Assembly (NCBI RefSeq): GCF_009931435.1
Contig: NZ_CP043414.1
Reading direction: 5' to 3' (one strand)
DNA: 64,000 nucleotides
From: Escherichia coli
GTDB taxonomy: Bacteria; Pseudomonadota; Gammaproteobacteria; Enterobacterales; Enterobacteriaceae
Part shown: piece after piece, positions 2,277 through 61,189 of the stretch
Layout of the letters: every line of letters starts with the position of its first letter
Position numbering within the stretch: position 1 is the first letter of the stretch
Notes under the pieces: generated by a model
Database searches by the model: none
What the model saw: the letters and a program-made list of their open reading frames with translations, nothing else
Told to the model about the DNA's origin: nothing
Made by a program: the position numbers and the translations under genes

Positions 2277-2445
2277 CAAAGAAAAAGGCAGCCTGTGGTT
2301 GCCTTTTGCCAATAATTCGCACACATTGCGGGTTACTGCTTTATTTTCGTTCAGTGCTGATAACGAACATCAACCTGCAAAACGAAGCGCATAGTTTAAA
2401 ATGGCTATCATCAATACGCTATATCTGATGGAAAAAAATATGCCT
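2277..2445 (-). ncRNA. sraB: possible SraB small RNA in the yceD leader region; approximate coordinates
   Basis: From memory, SraB maps between yceF and yceD, co-oriented with yceD. No boundary can be read from sequence alone. Confidence 0.25.
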
Positions 2446-3024
2446 AAACTTATTTTAGCCTCCACCTCGCCCTGGCGTCGCGCTCTTCTGGAAAAACTGC
2501 AAATCTCTTTTGAATGTGCAGAACCCGAGGTCGACGAAACCCCACGCAGCGACGAATCACCGCGACAGTTGGTGCTTCGACTGGCACAAGAAAAAGCGCA
2601 ATCTCTGGCGTCACGTTATCCGGATCATTTAATTATTGGTTCAGACCAGGTATGTGTTCTTGATGGCGAAATCACCGGTAAACCGTTAACGGAAGAAAAT
2701 GCCCGTCTGCAATTACGCAAAGCCAGCGGCAATATCGTCACCTTCTATACTGGACTGGCGTTGTTTAATTCGGCGAATGGGCATCTGCAAACAGAAGTGG
2801 AGCCTTTTGACGTCCATTTCCGTCACCTGAGCGAGGCGGAGATTGATAATTACGTGCGTAAGGAGCATCCCCTGCACTGCGCGGGTAGCTTTAAGAGTGA
2901 AGGATTTGGCATTACGCTGTTTGAGCGTTTAGAAGGGCGTGACCATAACACGCTGGTTGGTTTACCGCTAATCGCGCTGTGTCAGATGTTACGTCGGGAA
3001 GGGAAAAATCCGCTGATGGGATAG
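2440..3024 (+). CDS. yceF: Maf-like nucleotide pyrophosphatase YceF
   Basis: Track ORF 2401-3024 trimmed to internal ATG at 2440 ([21 protein letters not shown]...), giving 194 aa. Confidence 0.9.
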
Positions 3025-4306: not shown

Positions 4307-4667
4307 GTTTCCGTGTCCATCCTTGTTAAAACAAGAAATTTTACGGAATAACCCATTTTGCCCGACCGATCATCCACGCAGCAATGGCGTAAGACGTATT
4401 GATCTTTCAGGCAGTTAGCGGGCTGCGGGTTGCAGTCCTTACCGGTAGATGGAAATATTTCTGGAGAGTAATACCCAGTCTGTTTCTTTGATAATTGCGC
4501 TGTTTTTCCGCATGAAAAACGGGCAACCGACACTCTGCGCCTCTTTGAGCTGACGATAACCGTGAGGTTGGCGACGCGACTAGACACGAGGCCATCGGTT
4601 CACACCCGGAAAGGCGTTACTTTGCCCGCAGCTTAGTCGTCAATGTAAGAATAATGAGTAAGTTACG
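4307..4667 (+). promoter_or_regulatory. long rne 5' leader (autoregulatory UTR) and promoter region
   Basis: About 570 bp of non-coding sequence precedes the rne ATG; rne is known to have a ~361-nt structured leader. Boundaries estimated, not read from sequence. Confidence 0.5.
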
Positions 4668-7902: not shown

Positions 7903-8047
7903 TCATCTTTAAATCAACATATTAAAATTCATCGAATGGCATCCTTGCTAACCAACAATACAAAATAGGCAAAAAAATGCCCGCCCCGGCGATCCCAGAG
8001 CAGGCAGACAAAACATACCCAGTTTCATGATATGTTTTAAAGCGAGC

Positions 8048-9001
8048 TTATTTGTTGAGCTGGAACAGCGACAATCCCTGCATATCGGTAAATGCTTTAT
8101 ACGATGCCTGCAATGCCGTTTGCTGCATGATGTAAGATGAAATAGTTGCATTCCAGTCCACATCAACCAGATCGCTCATCTGCTGCGTTTGCCCTAAAGC
8201 GCGATCGCTACCTAATGAATCCAGCGACTCCAGTTCGTTCAGCTGCGTGCCTAATTCCGCGCGAACGGTCAGCACATTATTCAGCGAATTTTTCAGTCCG
8301 CGGTTGGTTTTATCCAGTGTCGCAGCGGCGGTTTCTTTATCCGCTTCGCTATCCGCGACCGGCGTTTTCAGGGCTGCGATGGCGCTATCCAGCATGGCAA
8401 AAAGATTGGTTTCAGAAGCGCTACCGTCTGGTTCCGCTACCGCGTTGCTGGTAATACTGTCGAAAATTTTGTCACCCGTGTGCCCTATCACCATCGAACG
8501 CGAAGCATCGACCTGTTGTTTAATACTTTCTGCTCCGCCAACATATTCGCCGTCTGCCTCACTAAACGGCGCAGTTTCTGTTTTATAACCGGCAAAAATG
8601 TAGCGCCCGTTACCGTCAGTGGTGTTCGCCAGATTCAGCAACTGGTCACGAAGCCCCTGAATATCCGTAGCCAGTGAGGCCCGGTCATCGTCACTCAAGG
8701 TGCCATTGCTGGCGTAGACAATTTTTTCCTGAGCATTCTGGATAGCAGTGGTGACCTGGCTAAGCACACTCTCTTCCAGTGACACTTTTTGAGTGGCGAA
8801 AGTACGCGCCAGCGTGTACTGACTGTTTTGCGCCTGTGCCTGGGAGAGAACAACAGCTTGTGATGCAGCAATGGGATCATCTGAAGGGTTAACGACTCGC
8901 TTACCCGTCGACATCTGTTCGCCGTACTTCATCCATTCTGCCTGAGAATTGGTGATGCCACGCATGTTTTGCTGGTACATCATCTGGGTACTGAAACGCA
9001 T
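8048..9001 (-). CDS. flgL: flagellar hook-associated protein 3 FlgL
   Basis: 317-aa ORF MRFSTQMMYQQNMRGITNSQAEWMKYGEQ...; last gene of the flgB-L series. Confidence 0.95.
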   Translation of the reverse strand: MRFSTQMMYQQNMRGITNSQAEWMKYGEQMSTGKRVVNPSDDPIAASQAVVLSQAQAQNSQYTLARTFATQKVSLEESVLSQVTTAIQNAQEKIVYASNGTLSDDDRASLATDIQGLRDQLLNLANTTDGNGRYIFAGYKTETAPFSEADGEYVGGAESIKQQVDASRSMVIGHTGDKIFDSITSNAVAEPDGSASETNLFAMLDSAIAALKTPVADSEADKETAAATLDKTNRGLKNSLNNVLTVRAELGTQLNELESLDSLGSDRALGQTQQMSDLVDVDWNATISSYIMQQTALQASYKAFTDMQGLSLFQLNK

Positions 9002-9012
9002 TTTATCTCCCC

Positions 9013-10656
9013 TTAGCGAATGTTAATCAGCGCATCAAAAATCGCGTTTGCCGTCTGCAGAACCTGCGCATTCGCCAGGTAATACTGCTGAAAACGTTGC
9101 AAATTTCCGTACTCCTCATCGAGATTGACACCGGAAATCGACTGCTGCTGATTGGAAAGCTGCGTCACCACATTACCTTGCGTGGCGCTACTGGTTTTCA
9201 ACGTCGCGGTTTTATTACCGATATCACTCACTAACGATGCATAAGCATCGTTAAAGGATTTCGCACCGCCCACCGTTTTACTGTTGCTTTGCAGATCCAG
9301 CAGGGCCTGACCGTTGCGGTTGTCGCTATCACCCGCATCTTCTTCGCTCGCCATGGCGATTTTCGCTTCGTCAGTGATTAATACATCCATGTTGACGATG
9401 GCGTCACTTACCGGTTTCAGCGTGAAGCTGTCGTTAACGGCAGGCGTTCCTGTAAACGTCAACTCCAGACCATCAAATGCCACTTTACCGTTGGCATCCG
9501 GCGCCACCGTAAAAGTGGTATTGCTGGCAAGGCGGGTGACCTGCCACTGATTATTATCGAACGAGATTTTGTAATCTGTCGCCAGTACCGCGGAGGCATC
9601 AGTTACCGTTGCACCGATCGCAACGCCACCATTGTTGTTAGTATTTTGCAGAACCGCGGGCTTACCGATAGCAAAGAAATCCTCCCCTTCTTTACCATTG
9701 GCATCATACCCCTTGTTATGTTGGGCATTGAAAGCCTCGGCAAATGCCAGCGCCAGTTGTCCGAGCGTATTACGCGTCTGGTCGAGATCCTGAGAACGAA
9801 ATGTCAGAATACCGCCCAGTGACCCGGTATTCAGCAATTTCTCCGGGATCTCAAGATTGCCCGCAGTCCCATCAACATAAGCGACAGTCGTACGAGAAGG
9901 GTCGGCGCTGGAAGGAACTGCCGCCAGCTGCCGCGCCGTACTACCCTGAACCAGTGAGTAGCCATTGGCCATCGTGATGTTATAAGTGCCACCATCCTGA
10001 ACGCTGACTTCTACGCCAACAATCTGGTTTAATTCGCTCACCAGTTGATCGCGTTGATCCAGCAGATTGTTAGGTGACGCCCCTGCCCCCACGCCTGTCA
10101 GGCGGGAGATCTGATCGTTCAGGCTGGCGATTTGTTTAGCGTAATTGTTGATCTGATCAACGCTGGCACCTATCGCGATATTGACCTGTTTGTCCTGGTC
10201 GCGCAGATATTGATCGGTGGTTTTAAACTGATTCACCAACCCTTCTGATTTCCCAATCAGCGCCTGGCGTGCTGCCGGGTCTTCCGCGTTACTTACCAGC
10301 GTTTGCAGGCTGGTGAAGAAATCCTGCATCTGTGTTGCCAGCGAAGAGGTACTGGTGGAGAGCATATTGTCGATTTTCGACATCTGCTCATAGCGGGCAG
10401 TCAGGCCGCTACTTTGCGTCTGCGCAGCACGTAACTGGTTGGTAATAAACGCATCATACTCACGCTGCACACCAGAAACGTAGACGCCATTGCCAACCCA
10501 GCCACCCGCGCCCAACGTGCTGTTGGCCTGCGCCATAATAGTGGTTTGGCGGGTATATCCGGCAACGTTATAGCTGGAAATATTATTACTTGCCGTATTT
10601 AACGCCGCCTGAGCCGCGTTCAGTCCGCTCATGGCGTTATTGATCAAGCTGGACAT
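9013..10656 (-). CDS. flgK: flagellar hook-associated protein 1 FlgK
   Basis: 547-aa ORF MSSLINNAMSGLNAAQAALNTASNNISSYNVAGYTRQ... Confidence 0.95.
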   Translation of the reverse strand: MSSLINNAMSGLNAAQAALNTASNNISSYNVAGYTRQTTIMAQANSTLGAGGWVGNGVYVSGVQREYDAFITNQLRAAQTQSSGLTARYEQMSKIDNMLSTSTSSLATQMQDFFTSLQTLVSNAEDPAARQALIGKSEGLVNQFKTTDQYLRDQDKQVNIAIGASVDQINNYAKQIASLNDQISRLTGVGAGASPNNLLDQRDQLVSELNQIVGVEVSVQDGGTYNITMANGYSLVQGSTARQLAAVPSSADPSRTTVAYVDGTAGNLEIPEKLLNTGSLGGILTFRSQDLDQTRNTLGQLALAFAEAFNAQHNKGYDANGKEGEDFFAIGKPAVLQNTNNNGGVAIGATVTDASAVLATDYKISFDNNQWQVTRLASNTTFTVAPDANGKVAFDGLELTFTGTPAVNDSFTLKPVSDAIVNMDVLITDEAKIAMASEEDAGDSDNRNGQALLDLQSNSKTVGGAKSFNDAYASLVSDIGNKTATLKTSSATQGNVVTQLSNQQQSISGVNLDEEYGNLQRFQQYYLANAQVLQTANAIFDALINIR

Positions 10657-10685: not shown

Positions 10686-10722
10686 AGTATTATCGGCAGC
10701 GACACGCCGGACTTGAGTTATT
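10686..10722 (-). promoter_or_regulatory. candidate sigma-28 (class 3) promoter for flgKL
   Basis: Minus strand reads ...tcaagtccggcgtgtcgctGCCGATAAtactc; the GCCGATAA -10 motif lies about 35 nt upstream of the flgK ATG. The -35 match is imperfect. Confidence 0.4.
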
Positions 10723-11663
10723 CAGAACAGATTATCAATGTTCATGCTGTAGGTTTTGCTCACCTTGTCGCTTATCGATTTCATCTGCTGAATCATGCTG
10801 GTGAGTTTGCGGGCATAGTGAGGATCGGTGGCATAGCCCGCGTCCTGTAGGGCCTGCGCCCCCTGCTCCGCACTCGCGGCGGTCGTCACGGCAGCGTAGC
10901 GCGGGTTACGTGTTAATAGCCCAACGTAATCCGACAATGCTTCCAGATACGAGCTGTAGACCCGAAACTTCGCTTTTACTTTCTTCGCTTCGCCATTTTC
11001 ATATTCAGTCGTGGTGATTTCAGTGACTGGCCCTTTCCAGTTGCCAGAGGCTTTGACGCCAAACAGGTTATAGCTCGGCTCGCCGTTTTCACGGCGGATT
11101 TGCCGTTGTCCCCAGCCAGATTCCAGCGCCGCCTGAGCGAGGATCAAATGATGTGGCACACCGCTTTGCTGGCTTGCCAGTTGGGCGGGCAACGAGAGTT
11201 GCGCGAGGAATGCTTTACTGTCACCCGGCAGCGAATCATCGTAGTTACGTGGTACGGCCTTTTGCACCAGCTGCGAAAGCGTCTGATTTTGATAACGCAC
11301 CACGGTTTCGAGCGGGAATTTCATCGGTGCTGCTGGCGTGGACTCCTCTGGCGATGGTTGTTCTGGCGTCATCTGTTTAACCATCATCTCTGCCAGCCCC
11401 AGACCTTTGCCCGCCGTCATCTGTTGGGCAATCTGCTGGTCATACATACTGGTATACAGGCGAGTGTGCTCGCTGCTGAACAGGCCATCTTTTGGTAAAG
11501 CGTCGCGCATGCTTTTCAACATCATCTGCACGAACATCCCTTCCACCTGGCGGGCCACCGGACGGATATTTGCCGCCGGATCTTCGCCCGCTTTCGCCTT
11601 AAGTTCGTTGAGCGATTGTGCATCCCAGGCCGCACTTGCCAGTAGTTTGCTGTCGCTGATCAT
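10722..11663 (-). CDS. flgJ: flagellar rod assembly protein / muramidase FlgJ
   Basis: Track ORF trimmed to ATG at 11661-11663 ([22 protein letters not shown]...), 313 aa; the start overlaps the flgI stop as ATGA. Confidence 0.92.
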   Translation of the reverse strand: MISDSKLLASAAWDAQSLNELKAKAGEDPAANIRPVARQVEGMFVQMMLKSMRDALPKDGLFSSEHTRLYTSMYDQQIAQQMTAGKGLGLAEMMVKQMTPEQPSPEESTPAAPMKFPLETVVRYQNQTLSQLVQKAVPRNYDDSLPGDSKAFLAQLSLPAQLASQQSGVPHHLILAQAALESGWGQRQIRRENGEPSYNLFGVKASGNWKGPVTEITTTEYENGEAKKVKAKFRVYSSYLEALSDYVGLLTRNPRYAAVTTAASAEQGAQALQDAGYATDPHYARKLTSMIQQMKSISDKVSKTYSMNIDNLF

Positions 11664-13522: not shown

Positions 13523-14323
<801 letters not shown>

Positions 14324-14349
14324 TTATTGACAAAATGCATATGTCTTCA

Positions 14350-14393
<44 letters not shown>

Positions 14394-14475
14394 AAAAATC
14401 AATAAATTGCGATGTACCCCGTAGACCGATAAGTTTGCACACCGGGCAACTTACGTTTGTCATGTATCCGTTCAA

Positions 14476-16481: not shown

Positions 16482-17177
16482 TTAAATTATCTGCCGTACT
16501 TCGTCGAGGGTGGTGGTGCCGTAAGTGCCGAGATCCAGCGTATTACCGTTGTTGCCGCGGATCACACCCTGCACCAGAGCAAACTGCAGCGGCTGGGCAA
16601 CCAGTTGTGTACCACCGCTACTGGCGCTAATCGCTACATTGTAAGAACCGTTCGGCGCAGTGCTGCCGTCAGTCAACGTACCGTCCCAGGTGAAACTGTG
16701 GACTCCGGCAGTCAGTTCACCGATATCAATGGTACGGACAACCGCGCCGTTTTTATCGGTGATGGTGGCCGTAACTTTGTCTGCCGCCTGCTGCAACTCA
16801 ACACCAAACGGTGTGGTCGTGGTCACAGCCCCTTCTTCACTGCCGGTTCCGGCAAGAACTGTGGTGCCGGGGATCATCACACCGTGACCGATCAGGTTAC
16901 TGGCCTGTAACGACTGGCTGTTATCAATCTGTCCGGAAATAGATCCGAGCGTGGTATTGAGTTTTTCAATCCCGCTGACCGTGCTGATTTGTGCCAATTG
17001 CGACGTCAGCTCGTTGTTTTCCATTGGATTGGTCGGGTCCTGGTTTTTCAGCTGCGCCACCAGCAAAGTCAGAAAACTGCTTTGTAAATCTGCGGCGTTG
17101 CTACCCGTGAGTGAGCTACTGCTGGTGGTGCTGACGCCGGTATTTGTCGGATCGGTGGTGGTTACCGCAATGGACAT
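16482..17177 (-). CDS. flgD: flagellar hook capping/assembly protein FlgD
   Basis: 231-aa ORF MSIAVTTTDPTNTGVSTTSSSSLTGSNAADLQSSFLTLLVAQLKNQDP... Confidence 0.95.
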   Translation of the reverse strand: MSIAVTTTDPTNTGVSTTSSSSLTGSNAADLQSSFLTLLVAQLKNQDPTNPMENNELTSQLAQISTVSGIEKLNTTLGSISGQIDNSQSLQASNLIGHGVMIPGTTVLAGTGSEEGAVTTTTPFGVELQQAADKVTATITDKNGAVVRTIDIGELTAGVHSFTWDGTLTDGSTAPNGSYNVAISASSGGTQLVAQPLQFALVQGVIRGNNGNTLDLGTYGTTTLDEVRQII

Positions 17178-17596: not shown

Positions 17597-18013
17597 TTAA
17601 TTTCCGCTCTGTAAAACGTTCATCATGCCTTTGATTTGCCCGCTCAACGCGCTAAGGCTCATCTGGTATTGCAGGCTGTTATCGGCAAACTGAGTGCGTT
17701 CGCGATCCATATCGACGGTATTACCGTCCAGCGAAGGCTGGTCCGGAATACGGTATTGCAGTTCTGCGGTAGGAGGCGTCAGCGCCTGCGCCGGAATGTG
17801 TTGCGTTGAGGTCATCGTCAGCGCAACCATGCTGGTTTCATCCCGTCCACGCTGCATGACCTTTTTAAGTTCACTGGCAAAATCGATATCGCGTGCCTGA
17901 TAACCAGGGGTATCGGCATTGGCGATGTTTGCTGCCAGCACTTCCTGACGCTGGGCGCGCAGATTGAGCGCCTCTTGTTGAAAACGTAAGGCGGCGTCGA
18001 GCTTATCGAGCAT
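17597..18013 (-). CDS. flgB: flagellar proximal rod protein FlgB
   Basis: 138-aa [48 protein letters not shown]... Confidence 0.95.
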
Positions 18014-18167
18014 ATCTCCTCCGCAAGTATCAAAATTCTGCCATCAGCTTAAATGCCTTTACGCGCGCGTTATCGGCGGAATAAACGCAAAATGGGTCGC
18101 TATTTATGCCGTTGATGGTCATTGCGTACAGGTACAATTCACGTTGTAGAAATGGCTGGGAGCGAAA
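18014..18167. promoter_or_regulatory. divergent flgB / flgA promoter region (FlhDC-dependent class 2 promoters expected)
   Basis: 154-bp divergent spacer between flgB (-) and flgA (+). The FlhDC dependence comes from established knowledge, not motif matching here. Confidence 0.5.
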
Positions 18168-18827
18168 ATGCTGACAATAAAACGTAGCGTGGCGATCATT
18201 GCGATACTGTTCAGTCCGTTAAGTACGGCGAGCAATCTCACATCGCAGTTACAAACCTTTTTTAGCGCCCAGCTCGCGGGAGTAAGTGATGAGGTTCGTG
18301 TTTCTATTCGTACATCGCCCCATCTACTTCCGCCGTGCGAGCAACCACTGCTTTCGATAAGCAATAATTCCCGCCTGTGGGGAAATGTGAATGTGCTGGC
18401 ACGCTGCGGTAACGACAAACGATATTTGCAAGTCAATGTACAGGCCACAGGAAATTATGTGGTTGCCGCGATGCCCATTGTGCGGGGAGGAAAGCTGGAA
18501 GCTGGCAATGTAAAACTGAAACGCGGACGACTGGACACCTTGCCGCCGCGTACTGTGTTGGATATCAATCAACTTATTGATGCCGTTAGCCTGCGCGATC
18601 TATCACCCGAACAACCTATCCAATTAACCCAGTTGCGCCAGGCCTGGCGTGTAAAAGCGGGACAACGCGTCAACGTGATCGCCAACGGTGATGGATTTAG
18701 CGCCAACGCTGAAGGTCAGGCGTTGAACAATGCTGCCGTCGCACAGAATGCGCGGGTGCGCATGGTATCGGGACAGGTGGTCAGCGGCGTTGTTGATGCA
18801 GATGGGAATATTCTTATAAACCTGTAA
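18168..18827 (+). CDS. flgA: flagellar P-ring assembly chaperone FlgA
   Basis: 219-aa ORF MLTIKRSVAIIAILFSPLSTASNLTSQLQTFFSAQLAGVSDEVRVSIRT... Confidence 0.93.
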   Translation: MLTIKRSVAIIAILFSPLSTASNLTSQLQTFFSAQLAGVSDEVRVSIRTSPHLLPPCEQPLLSISNNSRLWGNVNVLARCGNDKRYLQVNVQATGNYVVAAMPIVRGGKLEAGNVKLKRGRLDTLPPRTVLDINQLIDAVSLRDLSPEQPIQLTQLRQAWRVKAGQRVNVIANGDGFSANAEGQALNNAAVAQNARVRMVSGQVVSGVVDADGNILINL

Positions 18828-18832
18828 GCTGT

Positions 18833-18859
18833 TAAAGATTACCCGACCCATGCCGATAA
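18833..18859 (+). promoter_or_regulatory. sigma-28 (FliA) class 3 promoter for flgMN
   Basis: TAAA-gattacccgacccat-GCCGATAA, an exact match to the TAAA-N15-GCCGATAA consensus, about 45 nt upstream of the flgM ATG. Confidence 0.75.
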
Positions 18860-18902
18860 ATAAGCAACACATGATAAAAGCGCCCTCAATGAGGAATAAA
18901 CC

Positions 18903-19196
18903 ATGAGTATTGACCGCACTTCACCTCTGAAGCCCGTAAGCACCGTTCAACCGCGTGAAACCACTGACGCGCCGGTAACGAATACCCGGGCGGCAAAAAC
19001 AACCGCCGCCACCAGCACCAGTGTGACGTTAAGCGACGCGCAAGCAAAACTAATGCAACCCGGCAGCAGTGATATCAATCTTGAACGTGTCGAAGCGTTA
19101 AAACTGGCGATTCGTAACGGTGAACTAAAAATGGACACCGGCAAAATTGCCGATGCGCTAATCAACGAAGCGCAGCAAGACTTGCAGAGTAACTGA
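18903..19196 (+). CDS. flgM: anti-sigma-28 factor FlgM
   Basis: 97-aa [41 protein letters not shown]... Confidence 0.95.
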
Positions 19197-19200
19197 TCGT

Positions 19201-19617
19201 ATGACGCGTCTTGCAGAGATCCTCGACCAGATGTCCGCAGTGCTTAACGATCTCAAAACAGTAATGGATCAAGAGCAGCAACATCTCTCAATGGGGCAGA
19301 TCAACGGCAGCCAGTTGCAATGGATTACAGAACAAAAAAGCTCACTGCTGGCGACGTTGGATTACCTCGAACAGTTACGCAGAAAAGAACCCAATGCAGA
19401 AAATAGCGTTGATATTAGTCAACGTTGGCAGGAAATTACGGTGCAAACTCAGCAACTACGTCAAATGAATCAACATAATGGCTGGTTACTGGAAGGACAG
19501 ATTGAGCGCAATCAACAGGCGCTGGAAATGTTAAAACCGCATCAGGAACCGACGCTGTACGGGGCGAACGGTCAGACATCAATACCCCATCGCGGCAGTA
19601 AAAAGATTTCGATCTGA
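19201..19617 (+). CDS. flgN: flagellar export chaperone FlgN
   Basis: 138-aa ORF MTRLAEILDQMSAVLNDLKTVMDQEQQHLSMGQINGSQLQ... Confidence 0.95.
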   Translation: MTRLAEILDQMSAVLNDLKTVMDQEQQHLSMGQINGSQLQWITEQKSSLLATLDYLEQLRRKEPNAENSVDISQRWQEITVQTQQLRQMNQHNGWLLEGQIERNQQALEMLKPHQEPTLYGANGQTSIPHRGSKKISI

Positions 19618-19656: not shown

Positions 19657-21279
<1,623 letters not shown>

Positions 21280-26372: not shown

Positions 26373-26423
26373 TTATCCTTTGTGTCCGGCAAAAACATCC
26401 CTTCAGCCGGAGCATAGAGATTA

Positions 26424-45082: not shown

Positions 45083-45837
45083 GTTGTCACCCTGGACCTG
45101 GTCGTACATTTAAGAAATTAAATCATTTCAACTTAGTTGTTAACGCAACCTGTATTTTGTTAACGCCGCGTTACGATGGAAAGTATGTCTGCGGAAATAT
45201 TTTTAATAACTCACCCGCGCGTTGTATTTTTCTTTTTTTGTTCATACCAAAGTATTAAAACCCACGTAAATACGCTGTTATCTACGCAAAAAAAATATTT
45301 TGTTTTCTTTTAAATTTCGGTTTTCCGCAATCAAAAATCACCAGACAGTCATTCTTCTTGCCCGTCGCTGATTGCTGCGATATGTCTTGCGCACAAGCCG
45401 TGACAAACCTCGTCTTTTTGCAGTAAAAAATTGTCCACGGAGGTGTGGAGAAAAAACAAGAACGTTTTACATGACGAAAGGACTACACCGAAATATTTTT
45501 TATATGCATTATTAGCAAGTTAGCACCATTTGTATGATTTTTTAAAATTGTGCAAGAAAAACCAAATGTACAACTTTTCTATCATTTCTAAACTTAATAA
45601 AACCTTAAGATTAACATTTTAATATAACAAGTTACATTTAGTTACATGTTTAACACTTGATTTAAGATTTGTAATGGCTAGATTGAAATCAGATGTAATC
45701 CATTAGTTTTATATTTTACCCATTTAGGGCTGATTTATTACTACACACAGCAGTGCAACATCTGTCAGTACTTCTGGTGCTTCTATTTTAGAGGCAGCTG
45801 TCAGGTGTGCGATCAATAAAAAAAGCGGGGTTTCATC
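45083..45837. promoter_or_regulatory. csgBAC / csgDEFG divergent control region
   Basis: 755-bp AT-rich divergent spacer; the csgD -10 candidate TAGATT at 45679-45684 places the start site about 148 nt upstream of the csgD ATG. Confidence 0.7.
45631..45656 (+). promoter_or_regulatory. OmpR-binding site of the csgD promoter
   Basis: gttacatttagttacatgtttaacac, tandem GTTACAT half-sites just upstream of the csgD -35 region. Confidence 0.6.
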
Positions 45838-51381: not shown

Positions 51382-51469
51382 GGTGAGGTGTCCGAGTGGC
51401 TGAAGGAGCACGCCTGGAAAGTGTGTATACGGCAACGTATCGGGGGTTCGAATCCCCCCCTCACCGCCA
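51382..51469 (+). tRNA. serX: tRNA-Ser (anticodon GGA), CCA encoded
   Basis: ggtgaggtgtccgagtggctgaaggagcacgcctggaaagtgtgtatacggcaacgtatcgggggttcgaatccccccctcaccgcca; long variable arm, T-loop GGTTCGAATCC, anticodon GGA. Confidence 0.93.
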
Positions 51470-60106: not shown

Positions 60107-60124
60107 TCTGCGCCGATAATACAC

Positions 60125-61189
60125 TTAACTGTATGCATGTAGCGTACGTTGGCAAAGTGCCGAACGTACGCAATCCTCTTTACCGAATCGGACGATCCCG
60201 ACCATTTCATCTTCTTCGAAACGTTCCAGCGCGTCACTTAATCCGGAGCGCACGCCGCGAGGCAAATCGCATTGCGTGATATCACCGTTGACGATAACCG
60301 TCACGTTCTCCCCGAGGCGGGTTAAAAACATTTTCATTTGCGCGGCAGTCACATTCTGCGCCTCGTCAAGAATGACGACTGCATTTTCAAAGGTACGTCC
60401 ACGCATATAGGCGAACGGCGCGATTTCCACCTTCCCTATTTCCGGTCGCAGGCAGTACTGCATAAAGGAAGCCCCTAAGCGCCGGACCAGCACGTCGTAG
60501 ACCGGACGAAAATAGGGAGCAAACTTTTCTGCGATATCTCCAGGTAAGAAGCCAAGATCTTCATCGGCTTGCAGAACTGGACGGGTGACGATAATCCTGT
60601 CGACATCCTTATGTATCAGGGCCTCTGCCGCTTTTGCTGCGCTGATCCAGGTTTTTCCGCACCCGGCTTCGCCGGTGGCGAATATCAGCTGCTTACTCTC
60701 AATAGCCTTCAGATAGTGCAATTGCGCTTCATTTCGCGCGAGGATGGGCGAGGTATCGCGACTGTCGCGGGCCATACCAATGGCTTCTACGCCGCTCATC
60801 TGCACAAGCGAGGTGACCGATTCTTCTTCACGCTGCTTATGGCTGCGCGAATCCCGTCTCAGCACACGTTTTGCCTCGCGACGAGCTTTGATCACTGCTT
60901 TTTGTCTTCCCATGGAGAGCACCTTGAGTTGTTTGTATTCATCACACGCGCCGTTGGCAGCGCGATTATGCGCACGAACATCAGAGGGTTGGCTTCCTTG
61001 TAAGCCATAGTTTGCTTTTGGATAAAATGCCGAAAAACGGCTACGCGCACCGTTTACGGCGTCGGTAACACATGAAAAGAAAGGTTGAGGTTGAAAATGC
61101 AAAGTGACGAGATGACTACCGGAGGAGAAATCTCCGCGAGTGGTGGAGCGTTGCTTAACAAAACATTGTCCAGTACAGGACGTTACCAT
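60125..61189 (-). CDS. phoH: phosphate starvation-inducible ATPase PhoH
   Basis: 354-aa ORF MVTSCTGQCFVKQRSTTRGDFSSGSHLVTLHFQ...; Walker A GEAGCGKT in the C-terminal domain. Confidence 0.93.
   Translation of the reverse strand: MVTSCTGQCFVKQRSTTRGDFSSGSHLVTLHFQPQPFFSCVTDAVNGARSRFSAFYPKANYGLQGSQPSDVRAHNRAANGACDEYKQLKVLSMGRQKAVIKARREAKRVLRRDSRSHKQREEESVTSLVQMSGVEAIGMARDSRDTSPILARNEAQLHYLKAIESKQLIFATGEAGCGKTWISAAKAAEALIHKDVDRIIVTRPVLQADEDLGFLPGDIAEKFAPYFRPVYDVLVRRLGASFMQYCLRPEIGKVEIAPFAYMRGRTFENAVVILDEAQNVTAAQMKMFLTRLGENVTVIVNGDITQCDLPRGVRSGLSDALERFEEDEMVGIVRFGKEDCVRSALCQRTLHAYS

Follow-up and report, generated by a model that had tools for sequence, protein, structure and literature searches.

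From where, and by which form of RNA polymerase, flgM and flgN are transcribed is the question raised by the short spacer between flgA and flgM in the 64-kb stretch of Escherichia coli DNA analysed here (the window), in which a sigma-28-like motif had been pointed out. The sequence TAAAGATTACCCGACCCATGCCGATAA lies exactly at 18833-18859 on the plus strand and is laid out as TAAAGATT-N11-GCCGATAA, which matches 15 of the 16 positions of the consensus TAAAGTTT-N11-GCCGATAA with exact spacing. It is on the same strand as flgM, and 43 nt separate the end of the octamer from the flgM ATG, rather than the 45 nt originally given. The whole flgA-flgM spacer measures 75 nt, and five bases (GCTGT) stand between the flgA stop and the T that opens the -35 element. 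With the stop at 18825-18827 and the first base of the motif at 18833, the promoter is wholly intergenic; the original prediction was thus mistaken in describing it as embedded in the last codons of flgA and overlapping its 3' end, and right where its own body text placed the motif after the stop. The gene context is unambiguous, as flgA, flgM, flgN, flgK and flgL each exceed the NCBIfam cut-offs, with murJ convergent in this neighbourhood and flgB through flgJ, followed by flgK and flgL, on the opposite strand. The site at 18833-18859 is almost certainly the flgMN class 3 FliA (sigma-28) promoter, composed of TAAAGATT and GCCGATAA 11 nt apart and predicted to start transcription at A18866 or A18867, with its flgKL equivalent at 10716-10690 on the minus strand (Table 1).

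Table 1. Coordinates of the promoter elements, genes and RNA features of the window.
Feature	Position	Strand	Basis or remark
-35 of the flgMN class 3 (sigma-28) promoter, TAAAGATT	18833..18840	+	7/8 against TAAAGTTT; identical in K-12
11-nt spacer of the flgMN promoter	18841..18851	+	both K-12 differences (18846, 18850) fall here
-10 of the flgMN promoter, GCCGATAA	18852..18859	+	8/8 against consensus; equals the K-12 FliA ChIP-seq motif
Predicted class 3 flgMN transcription start, A18866 or A18867	18866..18867	+	Romilly et al. constructs; 1-nt uncertainty
Predicted flgM 5'UTR, 36-37 nt	18866..18902	+	CCUC-AAU-GAGG mini-hairpin and Shine-Dalgarno at 18884-18895
flgA, upstream gene, stop TAA 18825-18827	18168..18827	+	ORF listing and NCBIfam above cut-off
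flgM and flgN, operon from the flgMN promoter	18903-19196, 19201-19617	+	TIGR03824, 71 bits; NF012003, 276 bits
flgKL class 3 promoter: -35 TCAAGTCC 10716-10709, 11-nt spacer, -10 GCCGATAA 10697-10690	10690..10716	-	matrix; K-12 ChIP-seq and SELEX
flgK	9013-10656	-	ORF listing, NCBIfam
flgL	8048-9001	-	ORF listing, NCBIfam
FlgO sRNA, from the flgL 3'UTR, with terminator	~7971-8048	-	comparison with K-12 flgO (b4826)
SraB sRNA	2278-2446	-	Rfam gathering threshold
rne 5'UTR element	4307-4643	+	Rfam gathering threshold
PyrC leader	26374-26423	+	Rfam gathering threshold
ES056 sRNA	45691-45782	+	Rfam gathering threshold
tRNA	51382-51466	+	Rfam gathering threshold
Ysr251, antisense to the 3' end of a 354-aa gene (60125-61189)	60130-60323	+	Rfam gathering threshold

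The pattern TAAA-N15-GCCGATAA, in whose terms the site had first been described, has a single match on the two strands of the window, namely the flgMN site, and none in 100 dinucleotide-preserving shuffles, which bears out that part of the claim. The octamer GCCGATAA without a -35 element is not specific. Indeed, it is present in seven copies where 2.2 are expected, a number reached by 2 of 100 shuffles, and most of the copies lack a -35 element, a circumstance that would favour reading 18833-18859 as a chance AT-rich motif in an intergenic spacer, devoid of promoter function. The absence of the bipartite motif from the shuffles argues against this, and so does its score in a sigma-28 weight matrix of 28 columns built from 47 published E. 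coli FliA ChIP-seq sites, from which flgM and flgK were excluded (PMC4183435, Table 2). The flgMN site is the top match of the matrix in the window, with 24.6 bits, and exceeds all of 50 random 64-kb sequences (first-order Markov), whose maxima average 14.6 bits and reach at most 20.8. The second of the two strongest sigma-28 motifs precedes flgK, so that both sit at the places expected for flgMN and flgKL and can serve, as had been proposed, as an internal check of the flg annotation.

Conservation is equally difficult to reconcile with a chance origin. The flgM loci were gathered by a degenerate pattern for the FlgM N-terminus only, with one genome per species, and since such a pattern is confined to coding sequence, the promoter played no role in locus selection. 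The scan returned 120 loci, 119 of which encode FlgM; these represent at least 27 named Enterobacterales genera, including Yersinia, Pantoea, Erwinia, Brenneria, Salmonella, Citrobacter, Enterobacter, Kosakonia, Cedecea and Buttiauxella. A sigma-28 site is found upstream of flgM in 115 of the 115 loci with enough upstream DNA, at 15.2-27.7 bits as against a median of -0.6 bits and a 99th percentile of 10.5 in shuffled flgM upstream regions, and TAAAG-N14-GCCGAT is likewise carried by every one of these usable loci. When 103 unique flgM upstream regions are anchored on the site, TAAAG shows no variation and GCCGAT is 98-100% conserved, the extended T-GCCGAT-A being conserved at 95-100% and the T just before the octamer (T18851) at 99%. 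Information amounts to about 2.0 bits per column in both elements versus 0.1-1.0 bit in the spacer and flanks; in other words, across at least 27 genera the elements are invariant or nearly so while the neighbouring bases vary. The position is kept as well: by a strict ORF criterion the -35 T begins 4-6 nt past the flgA stop in 82 of 96 loci, and the -35 truly overlaps the stop in a single one (L049). An apparent identity of the flgA stop TAA with the TAA of TAAAG in Pantoea, Erwinia and Yersinia was rejected as an artefact of the longest-open-frame rule, which the strict ORF analysis contradicts. All in all, the cross-genus alignment outlines a sigma-28 promoter as a clean phylogenetic footprint, conserved start nucleotide included.

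The comparison with E. coli K-12 ties this deep conservation to an experimentally characterized promoter. The K-12 flgMN class 3 promoter (TAAAGATTACCCGTCCCTTGCCGATAAA; Fitzgerald et al. 2014, Table 2) shares with the window its position between flgA and flgM, its -35, its -10 and its 11-nt spacer length, and the flgM 5'UTR and Shine-Dalgarno sequence of K-12 MG1655 are identical to those of the window. Only two spacer bases differ, K-12 having T at the positions of A18846 and A18850. Similarly, the K-12 flgKL class 3 promoter (TCAAGTCCGGCGGGTCGCTGCCGATAAT) has in common with its counterpart the position between flgJ and flgK, the -35 TCAAGTCC and the -10 GCCGATAA, whereas one base of the spacer is T in the window and G in K-12. 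FliA ChIP-seq peaks with these motifs have been reported in K-12 at flgM (FAT 48) and flgK (FAT 47) (PMC4183435), and genomic SELEX with the reconstituted sigma-28 holoenzyme gave intensities of 15.0 for the flgA/flgM spacer and 27.2 for the flgJ/flgK spacer (Shimada et al., PMC5493296). Both sites are therefore orthologous to established K-12 FliA promoters, with identical -35 and -10 elements, which supports their original reading as the expected class 3 promoters. [quoted passage not shown] FliA binding, dependence on fliA and the 5' end are known from the K-12 literature and would be expected to be the same in the window strain.

The flgMN and flgKL sites are already known, so that the flgMN site is a known promoter and neither a new member nor a variant of the class. 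The sole strain-specific feature of the flgMN promoter is the pair of spacer substitutions, both of them at positions that differ from genus to genus and are not conserved. The region is matched in 5,425 of 5,426 complete E. coli genomes, and A18846 and A18850 occur together in none of these 5,425. Over the 91 nt of 18815-18905 the best E. coli match reaches 98.9% and most reach 97.8%, and with a 1.3-kb query just 12 genomes are found at 99% or above. The absence of the spacer pair from 5,425 genomes points to a source strain from a sparsely sampled lineage.

As to the point of initiation, a start about 7 nt past the octamer had been foreseen. The flgM 5'UTR primers of Romilly et al. begin AACACATGATAAAAGCG, with the start AACACATGAT corresponding to window position 18866, while their fusion described as "+1 to 105 = first 23 codons" yields a 36-nt leader and places +1 at 18867. 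Mapped on the window, the published flgM +1 thus falls 7-8 nt after the octamer, in agreement with what had been foreseen for flgM. In parallel, the A eight bases past the octamer (18867) is 92% conserved across genera among the 103 unique flgM upstream regions, and since this column is outside the anchoring weight matrix, it provides independent support for the start. By comparison, Hollands et al. (2010), who give the sigma-28 consensus as TAAAGTTT-n11-GCCGATAA, locate the aer start 6 bp beyond the octamer (PMC2859248). The agreement does not extend to the transcription start catalogue of Kim et al. (2012), from which the sigma-28 flgM start is absent and in which one weak flgM start is listed, with 14 reads and 66 nt upstream (PMC3415461); in the window this is G18837, the last base of TAAAG and part of the sigma-28 -35. 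The 18837 end could be a minor additional 5' end, deriving from a sigma-70 start or from processing of the flgAMN transcript.

Taken further, the listing of G18837 and of nothing at the sigma-28 position would be in line with flgM 5' ends arising altogether from a sigma-70-type promoter or from processing of the flgAMN transcript, the sigma-28 motif contributing little in vivo. A comparable picture is obtained from the K-12 conditions of Fitzgerald et al., in which deletion of fliA barely affects flgM RNA (451 to 318) and deletion of flhDC abolishes it (PMC4183435); the small effect of the fliA deletion implies that class 2 read-through can dominate. However, the 18837 start is represented by 14 reads only, and an additional minor start would supplement the sigma-28 promoter without replacing it. 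Moreover, fliA overexpression in an flhD mutant restores the expression of flgM and flgK, and not that of flgA and flgB, with flgM rescued to the wild-type level or above (PMC4183435), and in the study by Zhao et al. fliA deletion lowered flgM 6.9-fold, flgN 4.6-fold, flgK 5.5-fold and flgL 4.9-fold (PMC1935009). A negligible role of the sigma-28 motif is thus very unlikely, and initiation from the sigma-28 promoter at A18866 or A18867 is the reading retained.

According to this reading, with steps taken from K-12, the sigma-28 form of RNA polymerase (E-sigma-28) would bind both elements in the window strain and initiate at 18866/18867, producing a class 3 mRNA with a leader of 36-37 nt that would encode the anti-sigma factor FlgM and the export chaperone FlgN. 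Because the promoter lies inside the flgA-flgM spacer, 5 nt past the flgA stop, flgMN receives two inputs. The first would be read-through from the FlhDC/sigma-70 class 2 flgA promoter, and the second FliA-dependent initiation, which would set in after export of FlgM through the finished hook-basal body. As FliA transcribes its own inhibitor, the arrangement closes a negative feedback loop. In the established flagellar cascade, as summarised in PMC4183435, flgMN is also made by read-through, FlgM export frees FliA and the transcription of FlgM and FlgN is thereby raised; the overlapping operons flgAMN/flgMN and flgB-J/flgKL have been confirmed (PMC4183435). The flgK promoter, placed just past flgJ, where the class 2 flgB operon ends, would do likewise for the hook-filament junction proteins and hence for FlgO.

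The promoter might be intact and yet silent in the window strain if flhDC or fliA were inactive, as is the case in numerous non-motile lineages of E. coli and Shigella; both loci lie outside the window, and the spacer variant without a counterpart among the complete E. coli genomes would be compatible with such a state. On the other hand, every flg gene inspected in the window is complete in length and scores at the equivalog level, and all conserved promoter positions are intact with no sign of decay, so that silence seems improbable and a working promoter is the preferred reading. The current understanding of flagellar regulation is left unchanged by these results, whose value is that of a sanity check that confirms the flg gene assignments, the strand and the window's identity as E. 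coli.

The flgK site had been described as a weaker element at 10690-10697 on the minus strand. The element is present there, 33 nt upstream of the flgK ATG (10656), with TCAA in place of TAAA at the -35, and the site begins 5 nt past the flgJ stop (10722-10724). It is the second-best matrix match in the window, with 18.7 bits, a score above the mean random maximum and below the largest; since the score falls within the range of random maxima, the reality of this promoter rests on its position, its conservation and published binding. In particular, TCAAGT-N13-GCCGATA is present in 15 of 18 loci that reach flgK, and CTCAAGT and GCCGATA are both invariant in 15 unique flgK sequences, the window included. 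The invariance of CTCAAGT indicates that the C of the flgK -35 reflects a conserved variant rather than erosion. Downstream, FlgO is known as a sigma-28-dependent sRNA processed from the flgL mRNA (PMC10578931), and its processing from the flgL 3'UTR implies that the flgK promoter also drives FlgO. Within the annotated span of K-12 flgO (b4826), the window copy carries three single-base substitutions; Rfam 15 holds no family matching FlgO.

Folding of the window's flgM leader is no better than that of shuffled sequences (z = +0.58), and RNAalifold, applied to 66 other flgM leaders from Enterobacteriaceae, found the CCUC/GAGG hairpin that holds the Shine-Dalgarno sequence, invariant and alone, with no covariation. 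Immediately downstream, the published OmrA/OmrB pairing site corresponds to flgM codons 1-9, at 18903-18929 on the plus strand (PMC7549644); it differs from K-12 by one base, codon 4 being GAC in the window and GAT in K-12.

Outside Escherichia the leader differs in length. The distance from octamer to ATG is 43 nt in Escherichia, about 60 nt in most Enterobacteriaceae, 70-74 nt in Pantoea and Erwinia, and 96-121 nt in Yersinia, the Escherichia leader being about 17 nt shorter than most Enterobacteriaceae leaders. The segment missing in Escherichia forms elsewhere a small GC-rich hairpin with stems that depend on the genus (GUAGC/GCUAC, GGCG/CGCC or UGGC/GCCA; loci L038, L013, L035 and others), and its mean z is -1.0 versus shuffles. 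Some Buttiauxella likewise lack this segment, while the CCUC-NNN-GAGG hairpin with the Shine-Dalgarno sequence is invariant everywhere among the compared flgM leaders. In Salmonella, the class 3 flgM transcript reportedly shows a distinct translational or stability behaviour (Karlinsey et al. 2000). If the GC-rich hairpin is what confers this behaviour, E. coli may have lost or rewired a hairpin layer of FlgM control, a doubtful proposition.

The Salmonella enterica flgM class 3 promoter has the architecture of the window site, 5 nt after the flgA stop, with the same -35, TAAAGATT (loci L038 and L095). In the sampled Salmonella subspecies, by contrast, the -10 is GCCGATGA and the leader contains an additional hairpin and exceeds that of Escherichia by about 16 nt, so that the octamer lies 59 nt from the flgM ATG as compared with 43 nt in Escherichia. 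To the extent that its citation in PMC2859248 tells, this Salmonella promoter is the object of Wozniak and Hughes (2008). The sigma-28 promoter of E. coli aer follows the same TAAAGTTT-n11-GCCGATAA consensus but requires CRP, whereas no CRP binding was seen with flgMN or flgKL fragments (Hollands et al. 2010, PMC2859248).

Other sigma-28-like sequences are present in the window. A third exact GCCGATAA, overlooked in the original prediction, is found at 18070-18077 on the minus strand, in the divergent flgA-flgB spacer (18014-18167) and 56 nt upstream of the flgB ATG. As a sigma-28 promoter it was rejected, with CCCA at the -35 position and 10.3 bits, and across 92 unique flgB upstream regions CGAT is the sole conserved part of the octamer. 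Strongly conserved AAATAGCG...TTTTGCG.TTATTC blocks, which resemble an FlhDC box, adjoin it. In K-12 there is no FliA ChIP peak at this octamer and flgB is not rescued by FliA (PMC4183435). Most likely, 18070-18077 is a sigma-28-like -10 of the FlhDC/sigma-70 class 2 flgB promoter.

The remaining octamer copies, at 17679 on the minus strand and at 19984, 49185 and 60112 on the plus strand, lack a -35 element and were set aside as chance occurrences. The third matrix match, CAAAGTTACGGCCACCATCACCGATAAA at 16752-16779 on the minus strand, sense inside flgD, was also rejected, as its 15.8-17.6 bits lie within the random maxima and K-12 has no ChIP-seq peak there. For the 170-nt flgF/flgG spacer of K-12, Shimada et al. 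(2017) describe a SELEX peak of intensity 6.7 with the sigma-28 holoenzyme (PMC5493296); the flgF-flgG spacer of the window (14306-14475) contains no sigma-28-like motif, its best score being -0.1 bits. The copy at 60112, without TAAA, is located beside a terminator and 11 nt before the Rfam match to Ysr251, the last of six Rfam matches, from SraB to Ysr251, all of them expected for this region of the E. coli chromosome.
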